64,000 nt of DNA from Octopus vulgaris. Taxonomy: Eukaryota. Each line of letters starts with the position of its first letter. Positions within the stretch are counted from its first letter, which is position 1. The position numbers and the translations under genes were made by a program. Of this stretch, positions 20,771-63,240 are shown one piece after another. The stretch covers positions 27,590,001 through 27,654,000 of the forward strand of contig OX597818.1 of NCBI GenBank assembly GCA_951406725.2, in the 5' to 3' direction. The notes below the pieces were generated by a model. That model did not search any database, was not told the origin of the DNA, and saw only the letters and a program-made list of their open reading frames with translations.

Positions 20771-22072
20771 ATGGCTCTAATGTAGGGCAGAATTCATGAC
20801 AGACAAACTGTAGACAGGAAATTCACTGTGAGCTAGCTAGGGAGTTTGGTCTGCAGCGAAGTGGTATTCTGGAGAGAGAAGAGAAACACCATAATGTAAG
20901 CAGTGAGTGTTAAATGTTTAACTAAACAGAAATAATTGGTGACATAAGCCCTGATGTACGTTGAGTAATAAACCTTTGATAAATATCTGTTTAGTTGTGT
21001 ATAACTTAACAAAGCTATAACTGGTGACCCGGGCGATAGAACAACAGTCCTTGCTATCGAAACAAACATAGCAAGTGATAAAACAACACTGAGGCTACCG
21101 CAATTCTGGCCTAAGAGGGCTGAAATATGGTTCACACTGGTGGAAGCCCAATTCAATACAAACAAGGTAACGGCTGACCTAACGAAATATTTGTACGTAG
21201 TAGTGGCACTGGATGAAGATACAGCAACGAGGGTGCTGGACATTTTAACCCAGCCCCAACCAATGCACAAATACGCCATATTGAAAAACAGACTAGTGGA
21301 TATATTCCAACGCAGTGAATGAGAAGTGGCAGCCAAGATACTGGAGGAGGAATTAGGCGATTCTAAGCCTTCAGAACACTAGTCCCCCTCCCCAATGATG
21401 ACTCATTGACAACAACACATATGGTTCTGTGTCTCTGGCAACATCTGCACATGCTGCCCCCCACCGCGTAGTAACCGTTTCGCAGACCGAGGATGAATTC
21501 TCGAAGCTTCTTGCAAGTCACCTCAATCTCACTACTCTGACATTCTCCAAACCTACAGTCCACCATGAGGTGACACACCACATCTCCACCACCGCCCCCA
21601 GTGCATAACCGCACACGCAGTCTATCACCAGACAAACTTGTAATTGCAAAGGCCGAGTTCAACAATATGGGCATAGTTCACTGATCAAGCAGTCCCTGAT
21701 CGTCACCCCTGCATGTGGCCCCCCAATCCAATGGATGTTATCGACCCTGTGGAAATTACCACTGTCTCAACGTAGGTACGACACCTGACTGCTACCCTAT
21801 TCCACTTATACAGGATTTCTCAGCCCAGCTAGCTGGGTGCTCAGTTTTCTCGAAGGTTGACCTTATCCGAGGATACCACGACGATGTACTGAAAACTGCT
21901 GTGATGACTCCTTTCAGTCTGTACAAATTCCTACGGACACCCTTTGGGCTGAAAAATGCTTGATGGACACTGTGTGCAGAGGTTTCAATTTTGTTTTTGC
22001 ATACTTAGATGATATTCAAGCCAAAATACGGAGCTACATAAAAAGCACCTAGTGACTCTTTTTGATAGGCTG

Positions 22073-22319
22073 TGTTATGTAATCATCACAACAAACATGA
22101 ACAATTAACGTTGTCCATTGTCTCCCTTGATACAAGGACAATCAGTATGTTTCCCGCCACAACAAAGAAATACCTTGTACAACAACGCGCAGTCTAATAA
22201 AGTATCTCGTATCGTTAACACGTTTTTTCAGTCTCTCTCACTTTCTTAATCTTTCATACTAAGTACTCACTACTTCCTTTAATACTCAATACATTATATA
22301 TATATATATAACAACAACA
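22073..22319 (+). repeat. 5' LTR of the nested element
   Basis: 247 bp, TGTT...AACA with AATAAA; differs from the 3' LTR by two substitutions and one TA unit. Confidence 0.95.
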
Positions 22320-22397
22320 TGGTGTCAGAAAACTAAAAGAACCCAAAATACAGAAACCAAAAGAAAAAAGAAGTTGAAATCATACTTCAAAGACGAA

Positions 22398-24977
22398 ATG
22401 GAAAATTTACCGCATCCAAAAGACCTAGACTTTAATCAGGAAAATCTAGCCGCAGCATGGAAAAAGTGGGAAAAAGAATTCAATCTCTTTTTGATAGCAA
22501 CAGAAAGTGACATAAAGCCAGACAAAGTAAAAACTTCAATGTTTTTAACTTGCATCGGTTCCAAAGGCCGAGACATCCATTCCACTCTGGATTTCGATTC
22601 ACCCGACGAAGAAATGAACCTTCAAACAGTAATCCAAAAATTCGATACATATTGTGAACTCAGGAAAAACATAACTTTCCTGAGACACAAATTCTTCACA
22701 TGTGAACAAGCGGAACATCAAAAATTCGATGAGTACGTGGTAGAGTTGCGCCAAAAGGCACAACAGTGCGAATTCGGCAACCTCACAGACAGTCTCACCA
22801 GAGATATTCTGATATGTGGAATCAGAGACATGAGACTAAGAGAAAGATTATTGAGAGAACCAAATTTAGACTTACAAAACACAATTCAAGCAGGTCAGAG
22901 TGCAGAGCAAACACGACTCCAATCAAGGATGCTAAATGCCACATCCGAAACAAGAGATAACGAAATCTCGAGGGTATATAGTCAACACGACAGAAAAGGC
23001 GCCAAAACTCAAATAACTAGCCATATGCAATCCAGACATCAAAACGAACAAGGCGGATGTGACAGAAAGCCCGCGAAGTTTCAAGCGCCAAGTCAACACT
23101 ACGTCACTAACTGTCACTATTGTGGTTATAATCACAAAAGAAATAAATGCCCAGCATTTCACAAGACATGTGAAAAATGCAAGAAAAAAGGACACTATGC
23201 AAAAATGTGCAAATCAAGAAAATTTGTACATAAAGTAGAGATACATACCGACGATGAATCAGATGACGATACACATGCACTCGAAATGATCACTTCAAAT
23301 AATTCCCGCGTGCACAAAATCGAAAAGTTCAAGACTCCAAAAGACATTTGGACGGTCGAACTAAAAGTGAACAACTCGAATGTAACATTCAAAATTGATA
23401 CTGGAGCAGACGTAACCGTACTGCCATTCAGAGAATATAAAACTATAATTCCAAAACCACAACTGCAAAAAACCTCAACTCGGTTATCAGCTTACAATAA
23501 CACAGCTATAAAAGTGCTAGGAAAATGCACAGCAGTCATTAAATACAAAGAATTATCAAAACAAATAAAATTCATTGTTGCAAAAACAAACTCGCACGCA
23601 GTTATAGATGCAAAGACAGCTAAAGATCTGAACCTAATTCAGAGAATTTCAAAAATAAATTCGTCGAACACAAACGACATAATAGAAAAATGTGAAGAAT
23701 CAGTTGTTGCAGATACCCTATCACGTGCATACCTTAAGCAAAATACTCCAGAAGTATCAGACGAAGATATGAAATCGCACATACATGCAGTAATAAAAAA
23801 TTACCCCATAACCGACACTAAATTAAACGAGTACAAAGAAGCCACTGCAGACGACCCGTCACTACAGACACTCATCACATATACAAGAACAGAATGGTCC
23901 CCAAAAGACAAAATACCAATAAACATCAAACCATTCGTCTCCGTTCGTGATGAAATATCAATCGTCAATAGTCTCGTTCTAAAAGGTTCAAGAATAATTG
24001 TACCTAAGTCATTACGTAGAGAAGCTCTACAGGAAATACATACCGGACACATGGGTATCGAAAAATGCATAGAGAGAGCGAAGGAATGTATATACTGGCC
24101 CGGCATTAACGCTCAAATCAAAGACATGATTAACACATGCTCATACTGCATCGACTACAAAAACCAACAACCAGCCGAACCACTAATAAATCATGAAATA
24201 CCTACTATACCATGGACCAAAGTGGGTACAGACGTATTTCACCTGTCTGGAAATTCGTATGTCACAATTATTGACTATACAACAAGATTTTTTGATCTAC
24301 ACGAAATAAATGATTGCCAGTCAAAAACCGTAATCAAAAAATTAAAAGAAACTTTTGCTAAATTCGGAATTCCGCGAACAGTTGTAAGTGACAACGGTCC
24401 AGAATTCAATTCGGCTGAATTCAAAAAATTTGCAAAAAATTGGCATTTTCATCACACGAAGACAAGCCCGCATTATCATCAAGCGAATGGCATGGTTGAG
24501 AGAAATATACAGACAATAAAAAAGACGCTAAAAAAGGCATTCAAAAGTGGCGAAGAACCTCAGTTAGCGCTCTTAGCATTACGCACGACTAAATTACAAA
24601 ATGGTGCACCATCCCCTGCAAATCAAATAATGAATAGAACATTGCGAACAAATCTCCCAAACATACTACACGACAAAATTGGTATCAGGCCTCACGAAAA
24701 GAAGAAATCAAACATTACAACAGAACTCCCAGAGTTAAAACCACACGACACGGTTAGAATTAAGTTTAACAACAATTGGTTTAGAAGGGGCAAAATAATT
24801 AAAAAACTAGAGCAACCTCGTTCATACTTAGTAATAACAGAGGAAGGTAATACAGTCAAACGAAATAGACGACATATTCTTAAAACAAACGAACACGTTC
24901 GCATAACAGAAGAATTAGATTATGAAAATATATTTCCAAAGTCAACAAACACGCATGAAAAAACAAAAACAGCATAA
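22398..24977 (+). CDS. Gag-protease-integrase polyprotein without reverse transcriptase or RNase H
   Basis: Gag with zinc knuckles (CHYCGYNH...C; CEKCKKKGHYAKMC) and protease FKIDTGADVTVL, then NDIIEKCEES fused directly to VVADTLSRAYL. Integrase has HHCC (HTGH...CSYC) and D,D35E (GTD/SDNG/MVER). After the TAA the frame continues to TKSGRRIIIPCRYR* (25055). Confidence 0.9.
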   Translation: MENLPHPKDLDFNQENLAAAWKKWEKEFNLFLIATESDIKPDKVKTSMFLTCIGSKGRDIHSTLDFDSPDEEMNLQTVIQKFDTYCELRKNITFLRHKFFTCEQAEHQKFDEYVVELRQKAQQCEFGNLTDSLTRDILICGIRDMRLRERLLREPNLDLQNTIQAGQSAEQTRLQSRMLNATSETRDNEISRVYSQHDRKGAKTQITSHMQSRHQNEQGGCDRKPAKFQAPSQHYVTNCHYCGYNHKRNKCPAFHKTCEKCKKKGHYAKMCKSRKFVHKVEIHTDDESDDDTHALEMITSNNSRVHKIEKFKTPKDIWTVELKVNNSNVTFKIDTGADVTVLPFREYKTIIPKPQLQKTSTRLSAYNNTAIKVLGKCTAVIKYKELSKQIKFIVAKTNSHAVIDAKTAKDLNLIQRISKINSSNTNDIIEKCEESVVADTLSRAYLKQNTPEVSDEDMKSHIHAVIKNYPITDTKLNEYKEATADDPSLQTLITYTRTEWSPKDKIPINIKPFVSVRDEISIVNSLVLKGSRIIVPKSLRREALQEIHTGHMGIEKCIERAKECIYWPGINAQIKDMINTCSYCIDYKNQQPAEPLINHEIPTIPWTKVGTDVFHLSGNSYVTIIDYTTRFFDLHEINDCQSKTVIKKLKETFAKFGIPRTVVSDNGPEFNSAEFKKFAKNWHFHHTKTSPHYHQANGMVERNIQTIKKTLKKAFKSGEEPQLALLALRTTKLQNGAPSPANQIMNRTLRTNLPNILHDKIGIRPHEKKKSNITTELPELKPHDTVRIKFNNNWFRRGKIIKKLEQPRSYLVITEEGNTVKRNRRHILKTNEHVRITEELDYENIFPKSTNTHEKTKTA

Positions 24978-25079
24978 CTACAGAATTCAACACTACGAAA
25001 TAATAAAACAACAAAAAGTGGACGACGAATAATTATTCCCTGTAGATACAGATAAAAAAAAAATTAAAAAAAGGGAAGA

Positions 25080-25328
25080 TGTTATGTAATCATCACAACA
25101 AACATGAACAATTAACGTTGCCCATTGTCTCCCTTGATACAAGGACAATCAGTAAGTTTCCCGCCACAACAAAGAAATACCTTGTACAACAACGCGCAGT
25201 CTAATAAAGTATCTCGTATCGTTAACACGTTTTTTCAGTCTCTCTCACTTTCTTAATCTTTCATACTAAGTACTCACTACTTCCTTTAATACTCAATACA
25301 TTATATATATATATATATAACAACAACA
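25080..25328 (+). repeat. 3' LTR of the nested element
   Basis: Direct repeat of 22073-22319. Confidence 0.95.
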
Positions 25329-26617
25329 GGCTGGAACAGTATGGATTAGTAATCAACCCTGTCAAGTGCGTTTTTGGTGTTACAAAAATCAACTTCTTGG
25401 GACATTGAATCACAGGTGACGGCACTACACCCCTGCCAGAAAAAGTGAAAGCTATCCTATCCTTTCCATGCCCCACCACAAGCAAGGCTCTACACCAATT
25501 TGTGGGCATGGTAAACTTTTACCATCGTTTCATGCCTTCTGCAGTAATAATGATGAGACCCCTATACAAGCACTGTCAAAAGAGGGTTCAAAAAGACAGG
25601 TGGAGTGGGATAGTACAATGACTTCAGCCTTCAAATCCATAAAAGAAGTCCTGGCTAAAGCAACCATTTTGTCCCATCCCCATATGTCATCTTGAACTGC
25701 ACTCGCAGTTGACGCATCTGACACAGCCTTTGGGAGTGTTTTGGAACAACACATCAACAGCCAGTAGCAACCATTTGCCTTCTCCAGTCGACAATTACAA
25801 CGCCCTGAACAGAAATACAGTACTTTTGACAGGGAGCTACTGGCTGCCCGTCTAGGTGTCTGCCACTTTCGCTATTTCCTTGAATGCTGCACGTTTACAG
25901 GGTTCACAGCCCATAAACCACTCACCTTTGTTATGAGCAAGCTCTTGGAGACTTGGTCTGCACGCCAACAATGACAGCTATTGGCCATTTTTTAGTACAC
26001 CACAGACATCCAACACATAGCTGGCATGGGCAACCCAGTTACCAATGCACTCTCTCATGTTCCAACTTGCTCTCACACCTTCCTAGCCCCAATAATGGAA
26101 GGCGTAGATTATGAAGCTATGGCTGCAACCCAACAGACAAATGATGAGATCAGGGCCTACCACACTGCCATCACATCACCTTTTTTGCAGGATGTACACT
26201 TTGGCTCTAACGGCACAACCCTAATGTGTGACATATCCACTGGGAAGCCATGACCGATTGTCCCATCAGCCTGGCGCAAGAAAGTTTTTGATGTAATTTA
26301 CAGACTTTCCCACCCAGGTACTAAAGCCACACAGTGGCTGCTGTCAAGCAAATTTATCTGGCATGGTATGGCCAAGCAAATCGGAAACTAGATCAGGACC
26401 TGCATCCCCTGTCAACAAGCCAAGGTCCGTCAACACACCAAAGCACCTCTCGACAACTATGAACCACCTCAGGCCTGATTCAGCCATGTCAACATCGATC
26501 TTGTTGGCCCCCTACCACCTTCACAGGGTTGCTTGTATCTACTGACCTTGGTAGACCACTACACCCATTGGCGTGAGGCTATCCTTCTCCACAGCACGGA
26601 AACAAGAATTCTGCCGA

Positions 26618-37512: not shown

Positions 37513-40500
37513 TTGTTGGCATCATTTTTGTCTCGGGAGTCAATGGAGTTGCGCATAAAATAGTCTAGTCCGGCTTTTACATTTCATGTCCTGATACATT
37601 TCCTGCTGTGGCTGTGTAGTCCTATCCTGGACAAACACTCCCTCTGGCAGGTGCCACATATGTAGCAAAGTCTGTTCCTGGCTGGTTGTAATGTCATAGT
37701 TTCTTGTTGACGTCTTTTCTTGTCTTTCCATTTCTCCTCACTCTCTCTGTCACTCCTTTGTATTCCCTCTTTTACGGTACGTCGCCAATCTCCACGGTTG
37801 CTGGCAATTGCTTCCCAACTGCTAATATTGATATTGCAGGCCTTCACGTCCCTTTTGCAAACATCCTTGTAAAGTAAGAACGGTCTACCCACAGACTTAG
37901 TACCCCTAGCAAGCTCTCTGTAGAGTATGTCCTTGGGGATTCTGCCATTTGATGTGGAGGATGTTTAGGCGACGCTCTTGGTGTGTGTATAGCGTCCAAG
38001 TCTCACTTCCATACAGTAGAGTGCTAAGTACACATGCCTGGTAGATCTTCATTTTCGTGGTCTTGGTCAGCTTATTGTTGTCCCATGCCCGTTTGGAGAG
38101 TTGGGCCATCACAGCAGCTGCCTTGCTAATGCGTATATTGAGCTCAGCATCAAGGGATGGGTTGTAGGTGACGGTAGAGCCAAGATAGGTAAACTTCTCC
38201 ACCTCCTGTAATCTGTGGTCTCCAATATGTATGTTTGGGATGTCCGATGTAGCCTGACCCATGATGTTGGTCTTCTTAAGGCTGATAGCTAAGCCAAAGT
38301 CGTTACATGCTTGCTCAAAACAGTTAATGAGCCTTTGGAGGGCTTCTTCTGTGTGTGATACCAGAGTGGCATCAGCAAATAGCATCTCCTTGATCAGGAC
38401 GTTTCTGATTTTGGTCTTGGCATGCAGGCGCGAGAGATTGAACAGTTTCCCTTCACTTCTACTGTGCAGAAACACTCCATCATCTGATGTCTGAAAGGCA
38501 TGTGAGAGCAAGAGCAAGAAGAAAATGCCAAATAATGTAGGAGCAAGGACACAACCTTACTTTACCCCGTTTTTTATTTGGAAGGCAGCTGATGTTGAAC
38601 CATTGTGCTGTATGGTCCCTTGCATATCATCATGGAAAGACTTGATGATCCTCAGCAGCTTTGGTGGACATCCGATTTTTTGGAGCAGGATGAAGAGGCC
38701 TTTTCTACTTACCGAGTCAAAGGCCTTTGTTAGTTCAATGAAGGCCATATATAATGGCATTTTCTGCTCTCTGGACTTCTCCTGAAGTTGGCGTATGGAG
38801 AATATCATATCAATAGTTGATCTGCTTCTTCTAAAGCCACACTGCGATTTCAGATAGATTCGAGAAGCAAGTAGTTGTAGCCTGGCCAGGATAATGCGAG
38901 CAAAGGTCTTTCCAACAGTGCTTAGAAGAGATATTCCACAGTAATTGTTACAATCACCACAGTCACCTTTGTTTTTGTAAAGCGTAATGATGTTAGCATC
39001 CCGCATATCCTGAGGGACTGTACCCTCTTCCCAGCACTGACACAGAAGCTCATGAAGGTGCCGAAGCAGGATGGTGTTTTTGCTGGCTTTGATGATCTCT
39101 GAGGAGATGCCATCTTTTCCCGGAGCCTCGTTTCTTGCTAGGGAGTCAATAGTCTTGGTGAGCTCTGCTATAGATGGCGGACTATCAAGTTTGCACATGA
39201 CTGGCAAGATCTTGACATTCTCGATTGCAGCCTCAGCTACTGTAGTCTCCCGTGAGTAGAGATCCTGGTTGTGCTCCACCCATCTATCCATTTGCTTGCT
39301 TTGATCCTTGATGAGATCTCCTGTAGTTGATTTCAGAGGTGCTGACTTGGTTGCGGATGGACTGAGAGCCTTCTTCAAACTGGCATACATCCCACGGGTG
39401 TCACCGCTGTCAGCAGCTGACTGGATGCTCTGACAGATTTCCTGCCAATACCTATTTGCACAGCGTCTGGCTGTCAGTTGGGTTTTATTTCTTGCCTTTC
39501 TGAGTTCTTTGAGTGACTTTGTAGAAGAATCACTCTTGTATTGCATCAGAGCTGCACACTTTGCTTCGATAACTGTTTCCAGCTCTGAGAGCCCAGCATT
39601 GAACCAATCTGGGTTTTGCCTTTCTCTCATGCTGAAAGCATCTATTGATGTGGTATACAAAGCTTCCCCGATATAATTCCACCTACTTTCAGTAGAGGAG
39701 GTTGAGCAGCTACTGAGGGCAACCTTGATAGAAGCAGCAAAACATTTTTGCGGTGTAGGGTCCGAGGTTCTGGCAGTGTTAATGCAAAGTCAGTCCACTT
39801 TCTTGGAGCGATGGACTTTTTTAGGCAGAATCCTCACGCTACTTCTAATTAGTGAATGATCTGTGTCACAATCCGCGCTGTGGTAACTGCGGGTCAATAG
39901 AACAGAATTCAGAAAGGATCTCCGTGTAATGATGAGATCCAGATGATGCCAGTGGTGAGATCTTGGATGTCTCCAAGATGCCTTGTGGGATGGCTTTTTG
40001 GTAAAGAATGTGTTTGTGATGCACAGGTTATGGTATGTGCAGAATTTGAGTAGTCTCTGACCATTGTCATTCATGTTGCCAATACCAAAGTGTCCAACAC
40101 AAATGGGCCACGAATCATGGTCAGATGCCACGCGAGCGTTAAAATCCCCTAGAAGGTAGATATTTTCAGTTGTTGGTATATTTTTTATGACACAGTTGAG
40201 ATCTTTGTAGAACTGGTCCTTGGTCTCCTCTGAGCTGTAGAGAGTGGGAGCATAGATGCTGAGTAGATTTACTGAGCCAGAAGAAGTTGAGAGGCGCAGT
40301 GAGAGGATACGCTCAGTGCCTCCTGATGGTGGTTCTATTGAGGAGAGTAATGAGTTTCTCACTGCAAAGCCAACGCCATGCTGACGAGGTTCTTCTGGAT
40401 CGCTTCCCTGCCAAAAGAAGGTGAAATCCTGTTCTTTGAGTTTGCCGTTTGAGGGAAGTCTTGTCTCCTGTAGCCCAGCAATGTCTATGTTAAGCCTCTT

Positions 40501-41223
40501 TAGTTCACGGTCAATGATGGCCGTTTTCCTTGTGTCTTCAACCCTGAGTAGATCATCAGATATTCCAGGGCACATGGTCCTGACATTCCAGCTTGCCAAC
40601 CGCAGCACTGGTGGTTTCTTGTCTTTTAGTTGTTTGCCTGGTGCAGAGGTTGCAGGCTGCTTTTCAAGTCATACTCTTAGCTCCAAGCACCCAATGAAGC
40701 AGGCGGCCTGTGGCGGGTCCGCACCTTATTAACTGGGGGCTGCCCAACTTGAGGTGGGCAGTAGCTAACCAATAGGACATGGAGGTCCCTCCCACCGTCA
40801 GAGGTAACCCGTAGCACCCATATTTTATGCCAATCTGAATGGACTTATCACTCATGACTGTTACCTCCCGTGTTGTTTCTGCAGCTTTTTACAGCAGCAC
40901 TGAAGTGTCCTCTCCAGTTTTGCGCAGGCCTGGGCTAGAGATAAGAAAGTCCTGGGTAGCTCAATCGTCAGGTTTCCTCTCTCGACCTTGCTGATGTAGT
41001 CCAAAGGAGTGCAGAGCATTACGTTTGGCACCAGCTTGGAAGAGTGTCGAGTCGAACACTAAACCGCCTTTGGGGCTCCACTCCGAAGGTTGTCTCCTTT
41101 CCGTAACCCTGGATAGGGGTCCATACCGGGTACTGTCAGCCGGAGCCAGCTGAGCCCGGAACTCGTGTCAGGCAGGGTCGTCACTCCCTGAAGTAGTGAA
41201 GAAGTTTGCTGCCCACTACCTTT
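37513..41223 (-). mobile_element. Near full-length RTE (BovB-like) LINE, frameshifted
   Basis: APE ORF 40608-39790 (SWNVRT, LQETR, GDFNAR, DTDHSL); RT 39660-37906 (PGKDGI, QCGFR, LTKAFDSV, MLFADA, LLYGSETW); C-terminal C2H2-like motif. Candidate TSD TATAAATATA(T) at 37503 and 41224. Confidence 0.92.
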
Positions 41224-46255: not shown

Positions 46256-48223
46256 AACACTTCAAGAACTCAGTTTTGCTCACGTGAGCAGGTCTTGTGA
46301 AGAACCTCATATTGTTAGACATCTCAGTTTATTGTAATTTTCTCCGTGCGGCCCAACATCCTGAGATCAGTCCTTGCCATTTCATCCTACATCTTCCTGG
46401 GTTTCCCCTTCCATAGATACCATCCACTTTCTGTAGTCAGAACTTCTTTATGCAGCTGTCCTCATTCATACACATCACAAGTCCAAACCAACGTAGTCTT
46501 CTCTTTTGCATGCTACATTTGATTCCTCTTATGCCCAACATTTCTCTCAACACATTTGTACTATGTCCTCTATGTGTCCTAATGTTGCACATCCAATGGA
46601 GCATACTACCTTCATTTCTCTCCAGTTGATGCATGTCATCTGCATTCAGAGCCCATGTCTCACAACCATAGAGTAAAGCTGTTCGCACATAAGTACCACA
46701 CAGTATATCTTTCACTCTGAGAGAGAGTCCTTTTGTTGCCAACAGAGGTAATAGTTCTCTGAACTTTCTCCACCCTATTATTATTCTAAAAACAATACTT
46801 TTAGACCATCTTCCACCATTGCTAATTTGGTCACCTAGGTAACAGAAACTATCTACAAGAGATCCTCCTGGGCATTTGAGAGAATCTAAGTCTCATGTGT
46901 TGTTAGTGCTTATTGCACACCCGCCACATACAAAGATGACTTCATCTGTTATTCTACATTGTGATTCCATTGCAACTCTTATGTATCCATAGTTTACACT
47001 GGGTGTGGAAAATAGAATTTCTTCCAACTCCTTTCCTACATACTGAGCAGGGCCATTTACCTTACAGAAAGAGAGTTTTATCTTCTTTCTTACTAACAAC
47101 TTTAGTCTTTGCTAGGTTTAACTTTAAGGTCCTTTGATTCCAGGTTTTGTTTCCAAACCTGGAACTTCTTCTCTAATTCTGCTAAAGATTCTGCAATAAG
47201 AGCAAAGTCATCAGCATATAGCAGTTCTCATGGGCATCCAGTTTTGAATTCCTCTGTTATGGCCTGGAGAACTATAATGAATAAGAATGGGCTAAGAACT
47301 GAGCCATGTTGAACCTCTACTTGTACACTAAATTCATCAGCATATTCAAGGCCGGCTCTCATTTACTGACAGCACCACTGTACATGGCTTGTAGAACAGG
47401 CCACTCCTCTGCTCCTAACATCCTTAGAGACCACCATATAACAGAATAGGTAACTCTGTCAAAAGCTTTCTCCAGGTCAATGAAGCTAAGTACAATGGCT
47501 TACTTTTGGCCAAGTACTTTTCCTGCAGCTATGTCACTAGGAAGATGGTATCTGTGGTACACTTCCCAGGTATAAAACCAAACTGCATCTCAAGTAGTTT
47601 AATTCTGTTACTAATCAATTGAGCTATAACCCTCTCAGTAACTTTCATGACTTGGTCTAGCAGTTTAATATCTCTGTAGTTGTTTCTATCTAGAGCATCA
47701 CATTTAGCCTTGTAGCAGCTAACTATAATACTACTACACCAGTCATCAGGGAGGGTACCTTCCTGAATAATTTGATTAACTATACAGGTGACTAAGCTGT
47801 ATCCTACGCCACTGGAAATTTTAATCATCTCGGCAGTAATTCCTGATGGCCTAGGGACTTTGCCTGTCTTCATATCCTTAATTACCTCATCTATTATGCT
47901 GCTATCAACTGTGATGGCTGGTCCCTCAATTGGTTCAATATTTGGTAGACTCTCCTCCCATTCATTTTCCACATTTAGTAACCTTTCATAACATTTTCAT
48001 GCATCTTTCTTCTCTGAGTCACTACATGGAAGCATACCATTATCCATTCACATACATTTCTCACTCATCACATCTCTATTCTCTCTGATACACTGCTTTG
48101 TAATCCTAAATACTTCATGCATCTGATCCTCACTCTGTCGAGTATTTGCATATCTCTTAACTTCAGCTATTCTTTTTGCTATGTAAACCTGATGCCTGGC
48201 TGCCCTTTTAGCTACCTGATATA

Positions 48224-49516
48224 CGAGAGGCGTTCAATAAGTAATGCCTCTGGCCCACTTGCAGTTTTTTGATCTAGCTGAAATTTTGCATGTGCAATTA
48301 TTGATATTTCTATAGATTAAGTGGAAAATTACAGCTCTGAACTAATAGTGGTTTCTGATTTACAGGTGTTTGAACTGAGTCAAGTGTGAAATGGAGCCTG
48401 TTGAGTGTCGAACAGTGATCCGGTTTTTGTATTTGAAAGGACGCACACCACGGGAGACTTTTGATGAAATGAAAGTAACTTATGGTGATGATGCCCCATC
48501 ATATGACCTTGTAAAATGCTGGCATCGTGAATTCAAACATGGTCGGAACTCTGTGGAAACAGCTCCCAGATCTGGTCGCCCCACTTCTGCCGTTGATGAG
48601 GTATCTGTCCGTCAAGTTGAGGCTGCCATTTTGGAAGATCGACGCATAACTATTCGCCAAATAGTCCATGAGGTCAAGATTAGTACCGGGTCTGTGGAAA
48701 CTATCATTCATGACCATTTGCATATGCAAAAGGTGTCTGCCAGATGGATTCCCAGGTTGCTCACACCTTTCCAGAAGCAAGAACGCGTCGAGTGCTCGAG
48801 GATGAATTTGGAGATGTGCCAAGAAGATGAGTCAAACTTTTTCAAAAGACTGATTACACAGGATGAAACCTGGGTCCATCACTATGATCCAGAGACCAAA
48901 GCCCAGTCAATGCAGTGGAAGCACCGTGACTCACCTCCTCCAAAGAAGGCAAGTGTGCAGCCCTCCACTGGCAAGATCATGCTCACAATCTTCTGGGACC
49001 AGGACGGAGTAGTGATGACAGATTTCCTGGCAAAGGGTACCACAATTACAGGAGCCTATTATACTTCACTTTTGAGGAAATTAAGAGAAGCTATCAAAAT
49101 CAAGTTGCGGGGCAAGATCAGCAAAGGCATCCTCCTCCTGCAGGACAACGCTCCGGTCCACAACTCGCGTGTCACCAGATCAGAAGCACAGGCGTATGGC
49201 TATGAACTCCTCCCCCATCCTCCCTACTCTCCTGACCTTGCACCCTCTGATTTTCATCTCTTCCCAGTCATGAAGTTGTTTTTGAAAGGAAAGCGTTTCC
49301 CAGATGATGCAGCCTTGGTTTCTGAAGTTACGTCGTGGTTGGAGGACCAAGCTGGGGTCTTCTACAAAAACGGTCTCCAGAGCTGCATCAAACGAGGGGA
49401 GAAATGCGTAACTCTGGGTGGTTCCTATGTAGAAAAAGACTAATAACTGTGCCAAGTTTCGTTGCTCTACTGCTATGGGAAGTGGGTCAGGAGCATTACT
49501 TATTGAACGCCCCTCG
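48224..49516 (+). mobile_element. Full-length mariner transposon with TA TSD
   Basis: TA|CGAGAGGCGTTCAATAAGTAATGC ... GCATTACTTATTGAACGCCCCTCG|TA. Confidence 0.96.
48391..49443 (+). CDS. Mariner DD34D transposase, uninterrupted 350 aa (irritans-like by motif)
   Basis: HTH N-terminus, RSGRP, WIPRLL, TQDETW, QDNAPVH, YSPDLAPSD; 34 residues counted between the second and third Asp. Confidence 0.93.
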   Translation: MEPVECRTVIRFLYLKGRTPRETFDEMKVTYGDDAPSYDLVKCWHREFKHGRNSVETAPRSGRPTSAVDEVSVRQVEAAILEDRRITIRQIVHEVKISTGSVETIIHDHLHMQKVSARWIPRLLTPFQKQERVECSRMNLEMCQEDESNFFKRLITQDETWVHHYDPETKAQSMQWKHRDSPPPKKASVQPSTGKIMLTIFWDQDGVVMTDFLAKGTTITGAYYTSLLRKLREAIKIKLRGKISKGILLLQDNAPVHNSRVTRSEAQAYGYELLPHPPYSPDLAPSDFHLFPVMKLFLKGKRFPDDAALVSEVTSWLEDQAGVFYKNGLQSCIKRGEKCVTLGGSYVEKD

Positions 49517-50959
49517 TAATTTTCTGCTTCCACTGTTTTTCTATCCTTGGTCTAGCTAGGACTCTGCTCCAACCACAGATTTGTGTAACCTTCAGTAGAT
49601 TGTTCCACAGGAACTTTCAACTCTCCTCTAAGCTATATGTCTCCAACTCTTCCCTTTCGTCAGAAGCTTCTGTTAGGAAATCTCTGAATTTTTGTCTGTT
49701 TGCTGGGTCTTTGAGTATCCATAATCTTCTTTTCCAGATTGGTTTATTTCTCCAAATCTTTCTAGCTCTAATTCCGAAGGCATTAACTAGTAACCTATGT
49801 TGGGTTGTATACTCTTCACCTTGGAAAGACTTTGTACTTTTAAACATCCATCTATCTTGTTGCTTGGTGAGAAGGTAGTCAATCTGGCATATGTGCCCAC
49901 CAGACTGATAAGTGATTAGGTGGCTGGTTTGTTTTCTGAAGTTAGTATTGCAGATCACGAGATCATTTGAATCACAGAACTCCAGCAGTCTTGTTCCCTG
50001 CTCATTTCTAGGTCCAAAGTCATAGCTCCCATGCACTCCCTTGAATCCATGGGGATGCTGTCCAACATGTCCATTGAAGTCACCAGCCACAATAATGAAG
50101 TCTCTGTCAATTGTGTTTGAGGTAGACTGCAAAAGGACCTCATAGAATTGGTCCTTCTGTTCATCAGTCAACCCAGACTGAGGAGGATAGGCAGAGATAG
50201 ATGTAACTACTCATTTATATATGCTAAGTCTCATAATTACCCTATCACATACTCTGACTACTTCAATTACCTTTATCTACCCACTTTTCTGCTAACAGTA
50301 TGCCTACACCACCCACTCCATCCCTCTTGCCAACCCAGAAGAATTTGGATCTCTGTCTTTTCCCCATGAGGAATCTAGCTGAGACTCACCTCCATCTTAC
50401 TTTTTGCATACCACACATGAACATGGCATCGCTCCAACATTTTATTATGTCAGCATTGATGCTAGTGGCTCTGAGATTGAGTATTTGGGATTGTTGGTGG
50501 GAAGGTAATTCTGGAAATTTTTCATCATTTGAAAAGATCTGTGCAAACACTTGTCAGCTGACATTGGGCTCTGGTACATATTTTGCTCTGTGAATTACAA
50601 TGAATCACAGTTTCCCCCCATTGCATCTAATATTCAGAGCAAGAACCAACAAGAGATGAAGTGGGTATGAGAAAAGGGAATGTAAGTTGACCTGGAAGAG
50701 AGGATTAGGGTGGCTACATTGGACAGTTTAAGTATTACATGTCTAAATATTTATATATGAGATAGCTTTAACTGTGTATGGCACTTATCTGGGCACCTGT
50801 ATGAGGGTAGGGTATAAGGGTATAATCAAAATATGTACTCACACACACAGCACAGGGAGAATATATGAGTCACCAGGTGAAAAGGTTAATGCATAAATTA
50901 AAATGGTGGTGTTGGGTATAACAGGTGTGAAAATGAACACTGGGCACAGACCTTGTGCA

Positions 50960-54310: not shown

Positions 54311-56172
54311 TTGTTTTTGGCATCCTTTTTTGTCTCGGGAGACAATGGTGTTGCGCATAAAATAATCTAGTCTGGCTTTTACATTTCATGTCCTAATACA
54401 TCTCCTGCTGTGGCTGTGTAGTTCTATCCTGGACAAACGCTCCCTCTGGCAGGTGTTGCAAATGTAGCGAAGACTTTGCCTGGCTGGTTGTAATGTCATA
54501 GTTTCTTGTTGATATCTTTTCTTGTCTTTCCATTTCTCCTCTCTCTCTATGTCACTCCTTTGTGTTCCCTCTTTTATGGTATGGCGCCAATCTCCACGGC
54601 TGCTGGCAACTGCTTTCCAATTGGTAATATTGATGTTGCTGGCATGCATGTCCCCTTTGCAAACATCTTTGTATCATAAAAATGGTCTTCCCACAGACCT
54701 AGTGCCCCTAGCAAGCATATCATCATGGAAAGATTTGATGATCCTCAGCAGCTTTGGTGGACATCTGATTTTTTGGAGCAGGATGAAGAGGCCTTTTCTG
54801 CTTACCAAGTCAAAGGCCTTTGTCAGATCAATGAAGGCCATATATAATGGCATTTTCTGCTTTCTGGACTTCTGAAGTTGGCACATGGAGAATATCATGT
54901 GAATAGTTGATCTGCTTCTTCTAAAGCCACACTGCAATTCTGGATAAATTTGAGAAGCAAGCAGTTGTAGCCTGGACAGGATAATGTGAGCCTTTCCAAC
55001 AGTGCTTAAAAGAGATATTCCACAGTAATTGTTACAATCACCACAGTCACCTTTGTTTTTGTAAAGCGTAATGAATTTAGCATCCCACATATCCTGAGGG
55101 ACTGTACCCTCTTCCCAGCGCTGACAGAGAAGCTCATGAAGGTGCCGAAGCTGGACGGTGTTTTTGCCGGTTTTGATGATCTCTAAGGAGATGCCATCTT
55201 TTCCCGGAGCCTTGTTACTTCCTAGGGAGTCAATAGCCTTGGTGAGCTCTGCTATAAAAGATAGATTGTCAAGTTTGCACATGACTGGCAAGATTTTGAC
55301 ACCCTCGATTGCAGCCTCAGCTACCGTGGTCTCCCATGAGTAGAGATCCTGGTAGTACTCCACCCATCTATCCATTTACTTCCTTTGGTCCTTGATGAGA
55401 TCTCCTGTAGTTGATTTCAGAGGGGCTGACTTGGTTGCAGATGGACCGAGGGCCTTCTTCAAACTGGCACACATCCCACGGGTGTCGCCCCTGTCAGCAG
55501 CTGACTGGATGCTCTGACAGATTTCCTGCCAATACCTATTTGCACAGCGTCTGGCTGTCAGTTGGGTTTTACTTCTTGCCTTTCTGAGTTCTTCGAGTGA
55601 CTTTGTAGAAGAATCACTCTTGTATTGCATCAGAGCTGCACACTTTGCTTCGATAACTGGCTCCAGCTCTGAGATCCCAACACTGAACCAATCTGGGTTT
55701 TACCTTTCTCTCATCCTGAAAGTATCTGTTGATGTGGTATACAAAGCTTCCCTGATATAATTTCACCTACTTTCAGCAGAGGAGGTTGAGCAGCTACTGA
55801 GGGCAACCTTGATAGAAACAGCAAAACATTTTCGCAGTGTAGGGTCTGAGGTTCTGGCAGTGTTAATGTGTGGTTAGCCCATTTTCTTGGAGTGATAGAC
55901 TTTTTTAGGCAGAATCCTCACCCTGCTTCTTATTAGTGAATGATCTGTGTCACAATCTGTGCTTTGGTAACTATGGGTCAGTTGAACAGAATTCAGAAAG
56001 GATCGTCATGTAATGATGATATCCAGCTGTTGCCAGTGGTGAGATCTTGGATGTCTCCAAGATGCCTTGTGGGATGTCTTGTTGGCAAAGAATGTGTTAA
56101 TGATGCACAGGTTATGGTATGTGCAAAATTCAAGTAGCATCTGACCATTGTCATTCATGTTGCCAATACTAA
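54311..56172 (-). mobile_element. Second copy of the BovB-like RTE, 5'-truncated with a ~700-bp internal deletion
   Basis: Aligns by eye to 37513-40090. At ~54716 it jumps from the equivalent of 37915 to that of 38623, removing the RT catalytic region. Confidence 0.9.
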
Positions 56173-58510: not shown

Positions 58511-59227
58511 CCTTCTGCTGTGGGGAGGAGTAATATTGAGGGAGGTAGCTTTGTGCCAGGTGATGAGAGGTTAGAGTATGAATGGTGTTACAGAAATAGG
58601 TGTTTTGTAGTAGAGGAGATACATTGGGTAACTCAGTTAGAGAGACATGTTGAAGATGTGATGGTGGGGGCCACTCAAAGTAGAAGGAGGTGTGTCTAAG
58701 TGACATGGAACCAAGGGTTGGATTGGGCAAGTGGGTAGGTAAGTTCACGAGAAGGCAGAAGGTAAGTTGGAGATGGAAGGGAAGAACTGTATTTCATGAG
58801 GGTGTGAAGGGAGAGTGGATGAGGTGTTTCTAAATATCAACATCATGGAAAATTGCTTCTGATAAAATTACTGCTGTAACTAATGGTAGTCTTGTTTGAT
58901 CGAGAAAATTATTACTATTTGTGGTGTGAACGATGAAAAGAGTACAACAGAAAAAGGGAGAATGGAAATGTAATTGGGTCTTACCTCGTCGGAGATGAAT
59001 TTGGATACCTCTTAGCCAACTCGATGCGTCTGGTGCCTTCGTCGTGTCTGCCGCAACTGCTCGATCCCACACGTGCGTTCTGCCTGTCGCTTCCACTTCC
59101 TTCCGCGCATGTGCCCTGCAAGCCCTGCTTCCACCCTGCGAGCCCTACTTCCGCTCTCCCCTATCCATCATACTCTCTCACCAACACCACACGCCCCCCT
59201 GATCTACAGATCACTGAACCGGCTTTC

Positions 59228-62137
59228 TCACTCGCTCCTGCACCTGAAACTGGTTTCATAATCAGCTAACCAGGGAGGAGGGTGCCGCTCCCTCTGTGGT
59301 CGCAGTGCGACCCTAGGACTTGTTCCTGGTGTGTTGCTGCCGGCCTCGTCATCCTGTCTGTTGTTTTCGTCTTGCCCACTGCTGCTGGTCCCATCCTCTG
59401 GGGCATGGACAATCCTCCGTATGTCCAAAACGTGGCATGGCATACCATCGACCAAGATGTTATTTTTTGAATTTACATCGGTTATTGTCCCCTTTCCCCA
59501 TTGCGATGTACACCGTGCGTTTGGGGGTTTTACCCAGACTTCCTCCCCGACCTGCACGAAGGCGTGCTCTTCCTCTGCCCCGGGTCGCATTGATGTAGTA
59601 CACGGATGCCTCCACTCATACCTGAATATTGCCCTGTGTGGCACCGACTCCTCAGCCTGTCCTGATCTGGGCGACATATTGTACCAAAACACGGCCTCAA
59701 CTGGTGAAATGTGACCCTCTCTGCCATGGCTTTGATGGTACGATGATGCCTTTCCACCACCCCGTTTCCACTTGGCTGGTATGCCGCCCTGAAGAAGCAG
59801 TTGACCTTCCACTCATCAAGCATTTCTCTCAGCACATCCGAGCAAAATGCAGTGCCGTTGTCCAGAAGCAGTTCATCCACGGGCCTCGTTCCAGGAATAT
59901 CTCATTCAACACTTTCACAATTTCTTCTGCGGTCCCCGACTTCATCTCCCTCCATATGGCCAACCGCCCCGGTCTGCAGTCAACCATTGAGAGGTATGTC
60001 CCCTGCTGGTAGTGTGTTATGTCCGCCGCCAGTCGTTTCCAGTCCTGGTCCACTGGAATACTTCCCGTTTCATGCACGACCGGAGCAGGGTCGATGGACT
60101 GGCACCTGTCACAACTACTAACCACTCTCTGCACGCTCTGTCTTGTTACGTCGGAGTCAACTTTTCTGGCTAGGAACAATGTTCTGTCCACACCCATGTG
60201 ATGCATGGTGTGCAGTCTCCGTAACTCCGAGTTGCTCAGACGGCATACTGCAGCTACAGCCTGCTTCGCATCCTCTGACACCTGCAACCAGGCTCACTTT
60301 ACCCTGGTCAGGACGTCTGACCTGTTCTTCTTGGAAGGCACAAAGATCACGTTCAGCTTCAGATTGAACTCAGTGGTTAGTTCACGCAGCATTCCTAATC
60401 GACGTTTTACCAGCATCTCTGCAGCCCCTTTGGTCTGCACCCTCCGCTCATCGGTGATGACTGCTGTCGCCCAACCAAGTACAGTGGCTGAATCAGTCCT
60501 GATTTCTATGGTGTGCAACCCCCACTTCAAGGCTAGGTTCACCCCCTTCAGCACGGCATCCAACTCCGCCACGTTGATATGATTGCAGTCATCCATCTTC
60601 CTGAGCCAGGCTGCATCTTCCACCATGACACCTCCCACTTCCAAGACAACCCCTATTGCGATGCTACTGGCGTCACACCATACAATCCCGCTCTTTGATC
60701 TGGGAACATACCAGCTGCCCCTCACTGGGTCCTCTGCTCCTACTCTGACCAAGACTTCCTGCATCATGTCGATCGTCCTCTCCCCCACTTTATCATTCCA
60801 CTTCACTCCTTCGGCTCGTCTCTTGATGAAGCTACATGCTGTCCGGAGCCAACCTGCAATCGGGTAGTGTCCCACCAGCTTCCCACACACAGAGAACAGT
60901 TCCCGTCTACTCATGCTGGCGCCCAGTTCAGGGACCTCATTCCCTCGCCGGAACACCAAGGCGCTGGCCTTGTCTCTCCATAGCTTGAGGCCCAGTGCAG
61001 CACCTCCCTCCATAGCCTCTGGCGGCTTGGCGATCAGTCCAAAACTCTTCAGGTGGCCTATGACCTCCGTTGCTGGTATCACGGTTTCATCCACCAGAAT
61101 GTCATCGATGTATGAATTGGTGGCCCTTTTTACTCTGTCCACCTTCCCCAGGATGGCCTTGAGAATTGTTGCCATAATCTTTGGCGCTGAATTCAGCCCG
61201 AATCCCAACCTGGTCAGACAGTACGTCCGGCCCCTATACCTGACGAGCTGGTACTTCCATAATTTCTCAGCCACATGCGCCTGTAGGTATGTCGACTTCA
61301 AATCAACAATCGTGGAGGCCCCCGTCGTCTGCCTCCACTCTCGCAAGGTGTCTCCGCAGACATCCGTGGCCTCGCTGCCTGTATGACACGACATGTGGTC
61401 ATTCAGCTCTCGGAAGTCAAGCACTGGCCTGACCTTATGCTTTGTGGGCTGTATCACCGCCATCAGTGGCAGGACTCCGCTCTCTTCTTTTCCCAAGGGA
61501 TCAGTATGCCCTCCTTAATCCACCGCTCCACCTCCCCCTCGAACTCACTTCTGGCACCTCCTTTTAGAGTATGCTGATAGCAGCCCACTTTATTCTTTAA
61601 CATCGGGGGCTCTCCCTTCCAGTGCCACTCCACTGTCCACTTCTTGCCATCAAAGACAGCCCGAAAATCCTGGTCTTCAATGGTGTGCGCCGCATCCTTT
61701 TCCTCACGGTTGTCGCCGGTGCACGGTCTCGCCCTACACGGTTTCCCCGCTAACCCAAACGTTACGCCAGCCTCGTTGACGGTGACACCTCCCAAGCGGG
61801 TGGTTGCATCCATCCCCATCACCACGTCAATCTCGTCCACCAAGTGACCAACCACAATCACTCGCAACGTCAGCTGTAGTCCCTGCACCACAATCTGCGC
61901 ATCCGTAACCCCTTCGCAGTGTACTTCTCTTCCGTCGACTGCCCTAACACTGCTTCCTCCACTCCACGTCTCTGCCACTTCTGTAGTCATCAGGGTCGTT
62001 GTACAGCCCGTGTCCACCAGGGCTCGCGACATCTTCCCCTTCACCAGAATGTCGACCACAGGTTGCGATGATAAACGCGCCGCTACTGATCCAAAGGGAC
62101 AACTACCGGCGCAGTAGTCTCCCGCAGTCCATTTCCC
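59228..62137 (-). pseudogene. pol (protease-RT-RNase H-integrase) with a few lesions
   Basis: ALVDTGCTT; RPVLDFRELN, VDLKSTYLQ, LGFGLNSAP, YIDDILV; CDASS, HINVAELDAV; HHMG...CDRC, ADITH, DNGTAF, GVVER. Frameshifts near 61485 and 59880; stops at 60294 and ~59712. Confidence 0.88.
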
Positions 62138-62841
62138 CGCAGACACTCGCTGGCTACATGCCCCGGCTCTTGACACCGGTAGCAAATCACTTCAGTCTTG
62201 GGCGACCCACAGTCACGCACCATGTGTGGACCTTGGCACCGGAAACACTGTCCTTTGAACGGTCGCACACGTTCTTTCCTCAGCCCCTCTCCGCTGCTCC
62301 TAGCTGGGCCACTTTTCGACATTGCAGTCGCTGCTACCGACGTCATCCTGCTGCATGAAACTAGTACACATGCCCGAGATATGATGTCGGCCATCGGCAT
62401 CGAACGCACGTTCGGGAGCTTCTGTAGCTCGACCGACATGATGTTGGGAAAGCCAGTCACGAACACCAACCTAACCGTCCGTTCTAGCGACTCTCCCTCA
62501 TAACCCGCCAATTTAGCCAGTCTTCTAAGCTCATTGGCAAACACGTCCATCTGTTGCCCAGTCCATCTCATTCTACCCAGGCGAGCGTATGCCTCGAACA
62601 TACCTTCCGCAAAGGCCTCCATCAGTCGGATTTCTACTTTATCTGCGCTAAGTTGGTCCGTCTCCTCCATCTCTAAATATAACGCCAACGCCGGGCCATC
62701 CAAGTACAGTGGCATGAAGCTCACCAGGTCACCTATACAATAGAGCTTCGCCACCAACTTCACTCTCTTCAACCAAGCGACCACATCAGTGTCGCCGCAA
62801 AACAGTGTTATAGGTTCGCGCGAAACCCAAGCACTCTGCAT
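62083..62841 (-). CDS. Gag with two zinc knuckles
   Basis: Open frame with CFRCQGPHMVRDC and CYRCQEPGHVASEC. It overlaps pol in the -1 frame with slippery G GGA AAT at 62137-62131. Confidence 0.85.
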   Translation of the reverse strand: MQSAWVSREPITLFCGDTDVVAWLKRVKLVAKLYCIGDLVSFMPLYLDGPALALYLEMEETDQLSADKVEIRLMEAFAEGMFEAYARLGRMRWTGQQMDVFANELRRLAKLAGYEGESLERTVRLVFVTGFPNIMSVELQKLPNVRSMPMADIISRACVLVSCSRMTSVAATAMSKSGPARSSGEGLRKERVRPFKGQCFRCQGPHMVRDCGSPKTEVICYRCQEPGHVASECLRGNGLRETTAPVVVPLDQ

Positions 62842-63240
62842 AATTTTTTTATTTTTATTTTTTATAAAACCGAGTGTTTATTTGCCGAAATAGCTTGTGG
62901 TGTGAACGATGAAAAGAGTACAACAGAAAAAGGGAGAATGGAAATGTAATTGGGTCTTACCTTGTCGGAGATGAATTCGGATACCTCTTAGCCAACTCGA
63001 TGCATCTGGTGCCTTCGTCGTGTCTGCCGCAACTGCTCGATCCCACACGTGCGTTCTGCCTGTCGCTTCCACTTCCTCCCGCGCATGTGCCCTGCAAGCC
63101 CTGCTTCCGCCCTGCGAGCCCTACTTCCGCTCTCCCCTATCCGTCATACTCTCTCACCAACACCACACTATTACTACTCTTACAAGAAATGTTTGATATT
63201 GAATAACATTTCTATACACATTACTTTTTTCTTTTATCAG

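Follow-up and report, generated by a model that had tools for sequence, protein, structure and literature searches.

The window analyzed here, 64,000 nucleotides (nt) of the Octopus vulgaris genome, contains a Ty3/Gypsy retrotransposon, 3,256 nt long and flanked by GGCTG target-site copies, whose single open reading frame (ORF) runs from Gag through protease directly into integrase. The reverse transcriptase (RT) and RNase H of its full-length siblings are missing, and the same in-frame junction occurs at other insertion sites; very probably, the shortened form has been re-copied with RT supplied in trans. The element (Table 1) has the organization expected of Ty3/Gypsy: long terminal repeats (LTRs) with TG...CA ends, a primer-binding site (PBS), a polypurine tract (PPT) and a 5-bp target-site duplication (TSD). 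Two substitutions and a single 2-nt gap separate its two LTRs, as a sequence-only reading of the locus had stated. That reading considered all of the signals intact. All are present, but the 22-nt stretch spanning the LTR end and the PBS is one base off from all 99 other copies listed (100 of 111 PBS matches), and this private base adjoins the PBS core. The frame, likewise said to be open, is uninterrupted over 859 amino acids (aa) but ends early, at a stop (24975–24977) found in only one other copy. Pfam searches of the ORF matched the zinc knuckle, the protease and both integrase domains but, even with E values as high as 1 admitted, neither RT nor RNase H; this bears out the claim that it lacks RT. 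We take the PBS to match tRNA-Leu; no tRNA genes were found in the 64-kb window. The sequence on either side (window 21500–22072 and 25329–26250) is an older, decayed Gypsy-type pol that the element interrupts, and RT- and RNase H-like fragments of this pol continue across the insertion on both flanks.

Table 1. Features of the RT-less retrotransposon, in window positions
Feature	Position	Strand	Basis or remark
5' TSD, GGCTG	22068..22072	+	sequence
5' LTR, 247 nt, TG...CA ends, G-type subfamily	22073..22319	+	
PBS, starts TGG	22320..22330	+	
Single ORF, 859 aa, Gag-protease-integrase	22398..24977	+	stop 26 codons short of usual family end
Gag zinc knuckle, aa 256-273	23163..23216	+	Pfam zf-CCHC E 0.008, under curated cut-off
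Aspartic protease with DTG, aa 320-397	23355..23588	+	Pfam E 0.001, under curated cut-off
Deletion junction, 1,287 nt gone in frame (all RT and RNase H)	23692..23698	+	
Integrase H2C2 zinc-binding domain, aa 535-589	24000..24164	+	E 9e-15
Integrase core rve, aa 608-692, SDNG and GMVER motifs	24219..24473	+	E 1e-10
PPT	25066..25079	+	sequence
3' LTR, 249 nt	25080..25328	+	
3' TSD, GGCTG	25329..25333	+	

Full-length partners, which the sequence-only reading proposed to find through the LTR, exist in number: in the window's own genome (G000; 2.8 Gb), 98 copies with the same LTRs keep the sequence of the full-length form across the 5' break point. We examined all of these, the copies with the junction, and those listed PBS matches in which the 5' break-point site is lacking. 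The total is 117 loci, two of which are halves of a single copy, to which L153 and L154 are added, or about 118 copies; 11 of the 111 matches to the PBS and 3 of the 103 to the protease end were unlisted and are left out. A duplicate (L061) and a half copy (L147) were dropped from the allele counts, and the linkage analysis also omits L003 and the mosaics L115 and L131. The family comprises two LTR subfamilies, A and G, that differ at about 10% of LTR sites. The nearest named proteins are 95–96% identical to its own and carry the source label Octopus vulgaris, K02A2.6-like; we presume that the family belongs to the 'Mag group'. Like other K02A2.6-like Ty3/Gypsy elements of animals, its full-length members encode a single gag-pol frame in the order protease-RT-RNase H-integrase, as we confirmed in the sibling L049 (1,314 aa; RVT_1 at aa 502–659 and RT_RNaseH at aa 747–852). 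The family occurs in several organisms, through descent or transfer. Parts of window 23500–23900 are present in public runs of eight coded organisms from 11 studies (shares 0.32–0.60), and run X2 of organism B holds a near-full 4-kb copy that is about 97% alike. Segmental duplications on C3 (78.49–78.51 and 78.98–79.00 Mb; 59.83 and 60.00 Mb) have doubled two family insertions.

What the window copy lacks is 1,287 nt, or 429 codons, corresponding to about aa 433–861 of L049 and so to the whole of both domains. The cut had been placed at domain boundaries, and this is about right: it spans from the protease-RT linker to just past RNase H. Its ends have only AAGA in common (window 23695–23698), a 4-nt microhomology of the kind that had been suggested as something to look for. 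Template jumps at short homologies during reverse transcription are the usual origin of such deletions. A genome-wide search with a degenerate junction primer returned five copies, and the reversed control none. Besides the window copy (TSD GGCTG), there are two on C3 with the TSD ATATC, one on C28 with a cut 5' LTR and an unrelated 3' flank, and one, L071, on C1 with the TSD CTCTG. The C3 pair share their flanks over several kb and are counted as one insertion; two separate insertions there are rejected on the same ground. The junction thus lies in five copies at four insertion sites with different TSDs, the pattern that the sequence-only reading had proposed to look for, and a one-off deletion is ruled out. 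About 41,900 pairs of like strength exist, of which this 4-nt homology is one, so that four independent uses of it are unlikely. One junction base, moreover, is incompatible with any single crossover, and is common to four of the five deleted copies (L001, L002, L003 and L035).

The window-type junction is also present in contigs of two of the four public runs checked (X1 and X6, from one study, with the RNA type guessed). Contigs of the other two runs do not contain it, and contigs cannot show absence; among the 24 public runs listed, no holder of RNA type is on record. The X1 contig has 13 differences from L049, versus 17–33 in four of the assembly copies, and so cannot be assigned to any one of them. 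Since junction copies occur at different TSDs, full-length partners exist and the junction is found in independent runs, RT must have come in trans. Three observations match those that PMC9744471 uses to recognize a non-autonomous partner. Deleted and full-length copies were active simultaneously: where a deleted copy has both of its LTRs whole, these differ at 0–5 of 215 nt, and in the full-length subfamilies the median differences are 0.005 and 0.009. The PBS and LTR termini are those of the partner. And the deleted form has several insertion sites of its own (four for the 1,287-nt junction).

L071 differs from the other junction copies. Its body is A-type and its deletion is in the same 1,287-nt register, but the crossover is displaced in the 5' direction by a few bases. 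It is A-type throughout except at R281 and R1601, the latter 9 nt before the junction, where it carries G-type alleles, each found in only one other A-type copy that is itself an A/G mosaic. This is the pattern expected if L071 had taken its junction from a co-packaged deleted RNA. Among the 77 A-type copies, linkage is absent (mean r2 0.015–0.02 for sites more than 100 nt apart), and all four gametes are present at 285 of 465 site pairs. Recombination in the family is free, as one would expect if its RNAs are packaged together with those of helpers. Because recombination is so rife, the deleted copies do not form one clade in gag-protease or integrase trees, which are poorly resolved. In the gag-protease tree, full-length L062 nests with deleted copies (97% bootstrap with L002/L003), and L071 falls in the other subfamily.

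Deletions elsewhere in the family provide a background for this one. We compiled 21 distinct internal junctions, leaving out L064, L089, L109 and L141, which have joins to the 3' LTR or long filler. In three of the 21, RT and RNase H are lost in frame, wholly or almost wholly; the start points of these three fall inside a stretch of about 15 nt, and all three end just past RNase H or in the linker preceding integrase. In addition to the 1,287-nt junction they are a 1,260-nt junction at three sites (L137, L142 and L153) with different TSDs and unrelated flanks, and a 1,395-nt junction at one site (L139). About 9 of the 118 copies belong to this class, and a protease-end primer revealed no others among the 100 of 103 matches listed. 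Such deletions make up 0.2–0.6% of homology pairs, versus 3 of the 21 junctions observed; excluding the discovery junction, 2 of 20 are in the class (P 0.002–0.006). Of three other junctions used in control searches, those of L046 and L136 gave no second site and that of L138 gave one. L138 (G000:C4:61.56 Mb) and its counterpart L154 (G000:C29:20.30 Mb), one in each LTR subfamily, carry a 2,799-nt deletion that leaves gag and half of the protease, a TR-GAG-like derivative. The proposal that only deletions of RT and RNase H had multiplied (initially P 0.014) was rejected on this result. Multi-site junctions now number two of three in the class versus 1 of 18 others (Fisher P 0.04). All of them are in frame, 3 of 9 in-frame versus 0 of 8 out-of-frame junctions, a difference that is not significant (P 0.21).

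Two further derivatives have structures of their own. L136 (G000:C1:192.37 Mb) is a head-to-tail pair with three LTRs and one TSD, in which both units carry the same 3,389-nt deletion. L122 (G000:C20:30.97 Mb) has lost 1,071 nt in frame, comprising most of RT and all of RNase H; its LTRs are identical, it has zero private substitutions, and there is a 50-nt duplication at its protease end.

A possible parallel comes from another animal group. In a protein search over 1.84 billion representatives we found contiguous Gag-protease-integrase matches, six of which carry the source label of a pseudoscorpion (Cordylochernes scorpioides). We gathered 121 proteins of this pseudoscorpion family with the junction query (120 of 192 matches listed; P0223, P0254 and P0275 are members), and the counts that follow apply to the matches listed. 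Of 105 protease ends, 56 join within 200 aa to an RNase H end or an integrase linker. Five forms of the join are recurrent, seen 19, 14, 9, 6 and 3 times on 12, 10, 7, 6 and 3 contigs, respectively. The commonest has isoleucine at the junction in 17 of 19 proteins, versus 0 of 31 RT-bearing members, a difference that a predicted intron would not be expected to produce. We regard the pseudoscorpion joins as a lead, drawn from predicted proteins. Single records of similar appearance are P0219 (beetle), P0220 (butterfly) and P0101.

How might such a lineage arise and persist? We envisage that the deletion was made once, by a template jump at the 4-nt microhomology; that the shortened RNA came to be co-packaged with full-length RNA; and that the RT of full-length siblings would then re-copy it. 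Recombination in mixed particles could transfer the junction to the other LTR subfamily, giving L071. Last, and least certain, translating a cleanly folded Gag-protease-integrase polyprotein might confer an advantage in cis, by analogy with mouse IAP 1-delta-1. On balance, by a modest margin over even chances, we favor this account: a small, trans-mobilized Ty3/Gypsy deletion lineage whose open Gag-protease-integrase frame probably aids the packaging of its own RNA.

Several results weigh against this account. By codon phase alone, 45–67% of 7–10-nt microhomologies in the family are in frame, and the 9 of 17 intra-ORF deletions that are in frame match this null; frame keeping is accordingly rejected as proof of selection. 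Gag-protease and integrase are both open in 4 of 9 copies without RT and RNase H, versus 28 of 76 full-length copies. Private nonsynonymous and synonymous changes stand at 51:21 in the five 1,287-nt copies, versus 129:55 and 190:66 in full-length copies, and those in the deleted copies look neutral. (Variants common to at least three copies are synonymous-rich, 46:72, as expected of an active family.) The deleted copies have almost no private substitutions in common, and so the ratio of nonsynonymous to synonymous rates of the lineage is not measurable. With 5 of the roughly 118 copies examined, the lineage is small, and the frame of the window copy itself terminates 26 codons early. The class of whole RT and RNase H deletions was defined after the data had been seen, and a break-point hot spot would yield an equal excess. 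The three 1,260-nt copies share only junction alleles and no private ones, their homology is strong (13 of 15), and they may be separate events. An integrase-less deletion, that of L138 and L154, has multiplied as well. And the pseudoscorpion joins, fetched by the junction query, lie in predicted proteins that are chimeric gene models. Of the semi-autonomous lineage put forward in the sequence-only reading, then, the borrowing of RT in trans stands, and the retention by selection of its own particle and integrase, given the lack of enrichment of open frames and the neutral-looking private changes, is unproven.

Several of these results are what a passive hitch-hiker would produce, and this is the most serious alternative, a minority reading that we nevertheless give considerable weight. 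It holds that LTRs, PBS, PPT and packaging signals suffice for copying in trans, that the open frame is a by-product of codon phase, and that an acceptor hot spot in the A-rich protease-RT linker accounts for the recurring break point. The codon-phase null, the lack of enrichment of open frames, the neutral-looking private changes, the spread of the integrase-less deletion and the three break points inside about 15 nt all suit it. A hot spot at the 5' end alone, however, fails to predict that all three 3' ends lie near the RNase H/integrase linker. None of the eight out-of-frame junctions is multi-site, not a significant deficit, and the parallel multi-locus joins in the pseudoscorpion family are also unaccounted for.

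An improbable alternative is that there was no re-copying at all, full-length copies having been deleted singly after insertion, or the junction having spread by gene conversion. The nesting of full-length L062 among deleted copies that are not a clean clade, the placement of L071 in the other subfamily and the want of common private alleles among the 1,260-nt copies agree with it. Against this, one 4-nt homology among about 41,900 would have to have been used at four sites, with the odd junction base at three of them, and mosaics are expected in any case where a whole family is in linkage equilibrium. A retrotransposed spliced RNA, from which RT and RNase H had been removed as an intron, was the other origin offered by the sequence-only reading, and is highly improbable. 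The 1,260-nt deletion can be cut in five equally good ways, one of which reads AT...AC. But that cut begins ATTAGA, unlike the minor-intron donor consensus; a minus-strand GT...AT reading requires one extra mismatch; and the best-fitting cuts of the 1,287- and 1,395-nt deletions have no splice ends, those of the former lacking GT-AG, GC-AG and AT-AC on either strand. Assembly collapse can be dismissed, with five copies on four contigs, each with its own flanks and substitutions, and the junction in contigs of two of the four public runs.

The nearest known system to the trans-mobilized lineage that we favor is mouse IAP 1-delta-1. This has a 1.9-kb gag-pol deletion, and its fusion protein is reported (PMC6466679, PMC7411935) to act in cis, with Gag and Pol supplied in trans. 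In both elements an internal deletion joins gag to the remaining pol in one frame, and full-length helpers are needed in trans. IAP is an endogenous retrovirus in which the deletion takes part of gag as well as of pol, whereas the octopus element, whose relatives are labelled Ty3/Gypsy and K02A2.6-like, keeps gag, protease and integrase whole. IAP 1-delta-1 is described as making most new insertions; the octopus class amounts to about 9 of 118 copies, and a cis effect is proposed for it by analogy. Wheat RLG_Sabrina_SA and RLG_Quinta, and TR-GAG, are described in PMC9744471, PMC11302176 and PMC13570524 as having kept gag and lost RT and integrase; some families in PMC13570524 have partly decayed pol remnants, integrase included. 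These elements resemble ours in keeping gag, with or without protease, in having the PBS and LTR ends of an autonomous partner and in borrowing RT. They differ in being old, present in thousands of copies and without integrase, whereas the octopus lineage is small, 95–98% identical to its full-length helpers and open through both the H2C2 and rve domains. In its mode of working the octopus lineage resembles IAP 1-delta-1. It cannot be classed as a TR-GAG, since it retains integrase. We found no RT-less LTR class with an open integrase in the literature searched, the main texts of largely open-access papers.

This bears on what can be borrowed. The coding non-autonomous LTR elements known so far retain Gag, sometimes with protease, but neither RT nor integrase. 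A recurrent form with its integrase still in place would reveal which enzymes are borrowable inside a shared particle. It would also show whether packaging of an RNA depends on its translation, as in the cis rule reported for IAP 1-delta-1. We think it possible, while leaning the other way, that single-frame Ty3/Gypsy families of animals repeatedly yield a selected, hitherto undescribed class of parasite that drops exactly RT and RNase H and keeps a working Gag-protease-integrase. Equally tentative, and part of the same reading, is the suggestion that the three origins found here and about five multi-locus forms in the pseudoscorpion represent a convergent division of labor in mixed particles. 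Censuses of retrotransposons that are based on RT miss such elements. If the octopus copies prove to be passive after all, the family nonetheless preserves, as a natural record, clean traces of template jumps, of microhomology in codon phase and of free recombination of co-packaged RNAs.

Other sequences in the window resemble mobile elements. An open frame of 354 aa (48379–49443, plus strand) is presumably a mariner-type transposase. Three sets of broken frames on the minus strand (37906–40668, 46437–50210 and 54674–55375) we take to be LINE-type endonuclease and RT. An unrelated LTR retrotransposon, represented by fragments of gag, protease, RT, RNase H and integrase, lies at 59114–63130 on the minus strand; two matching repeats of 20 nt, at 59114 and 63089, probably mark its LTRs.

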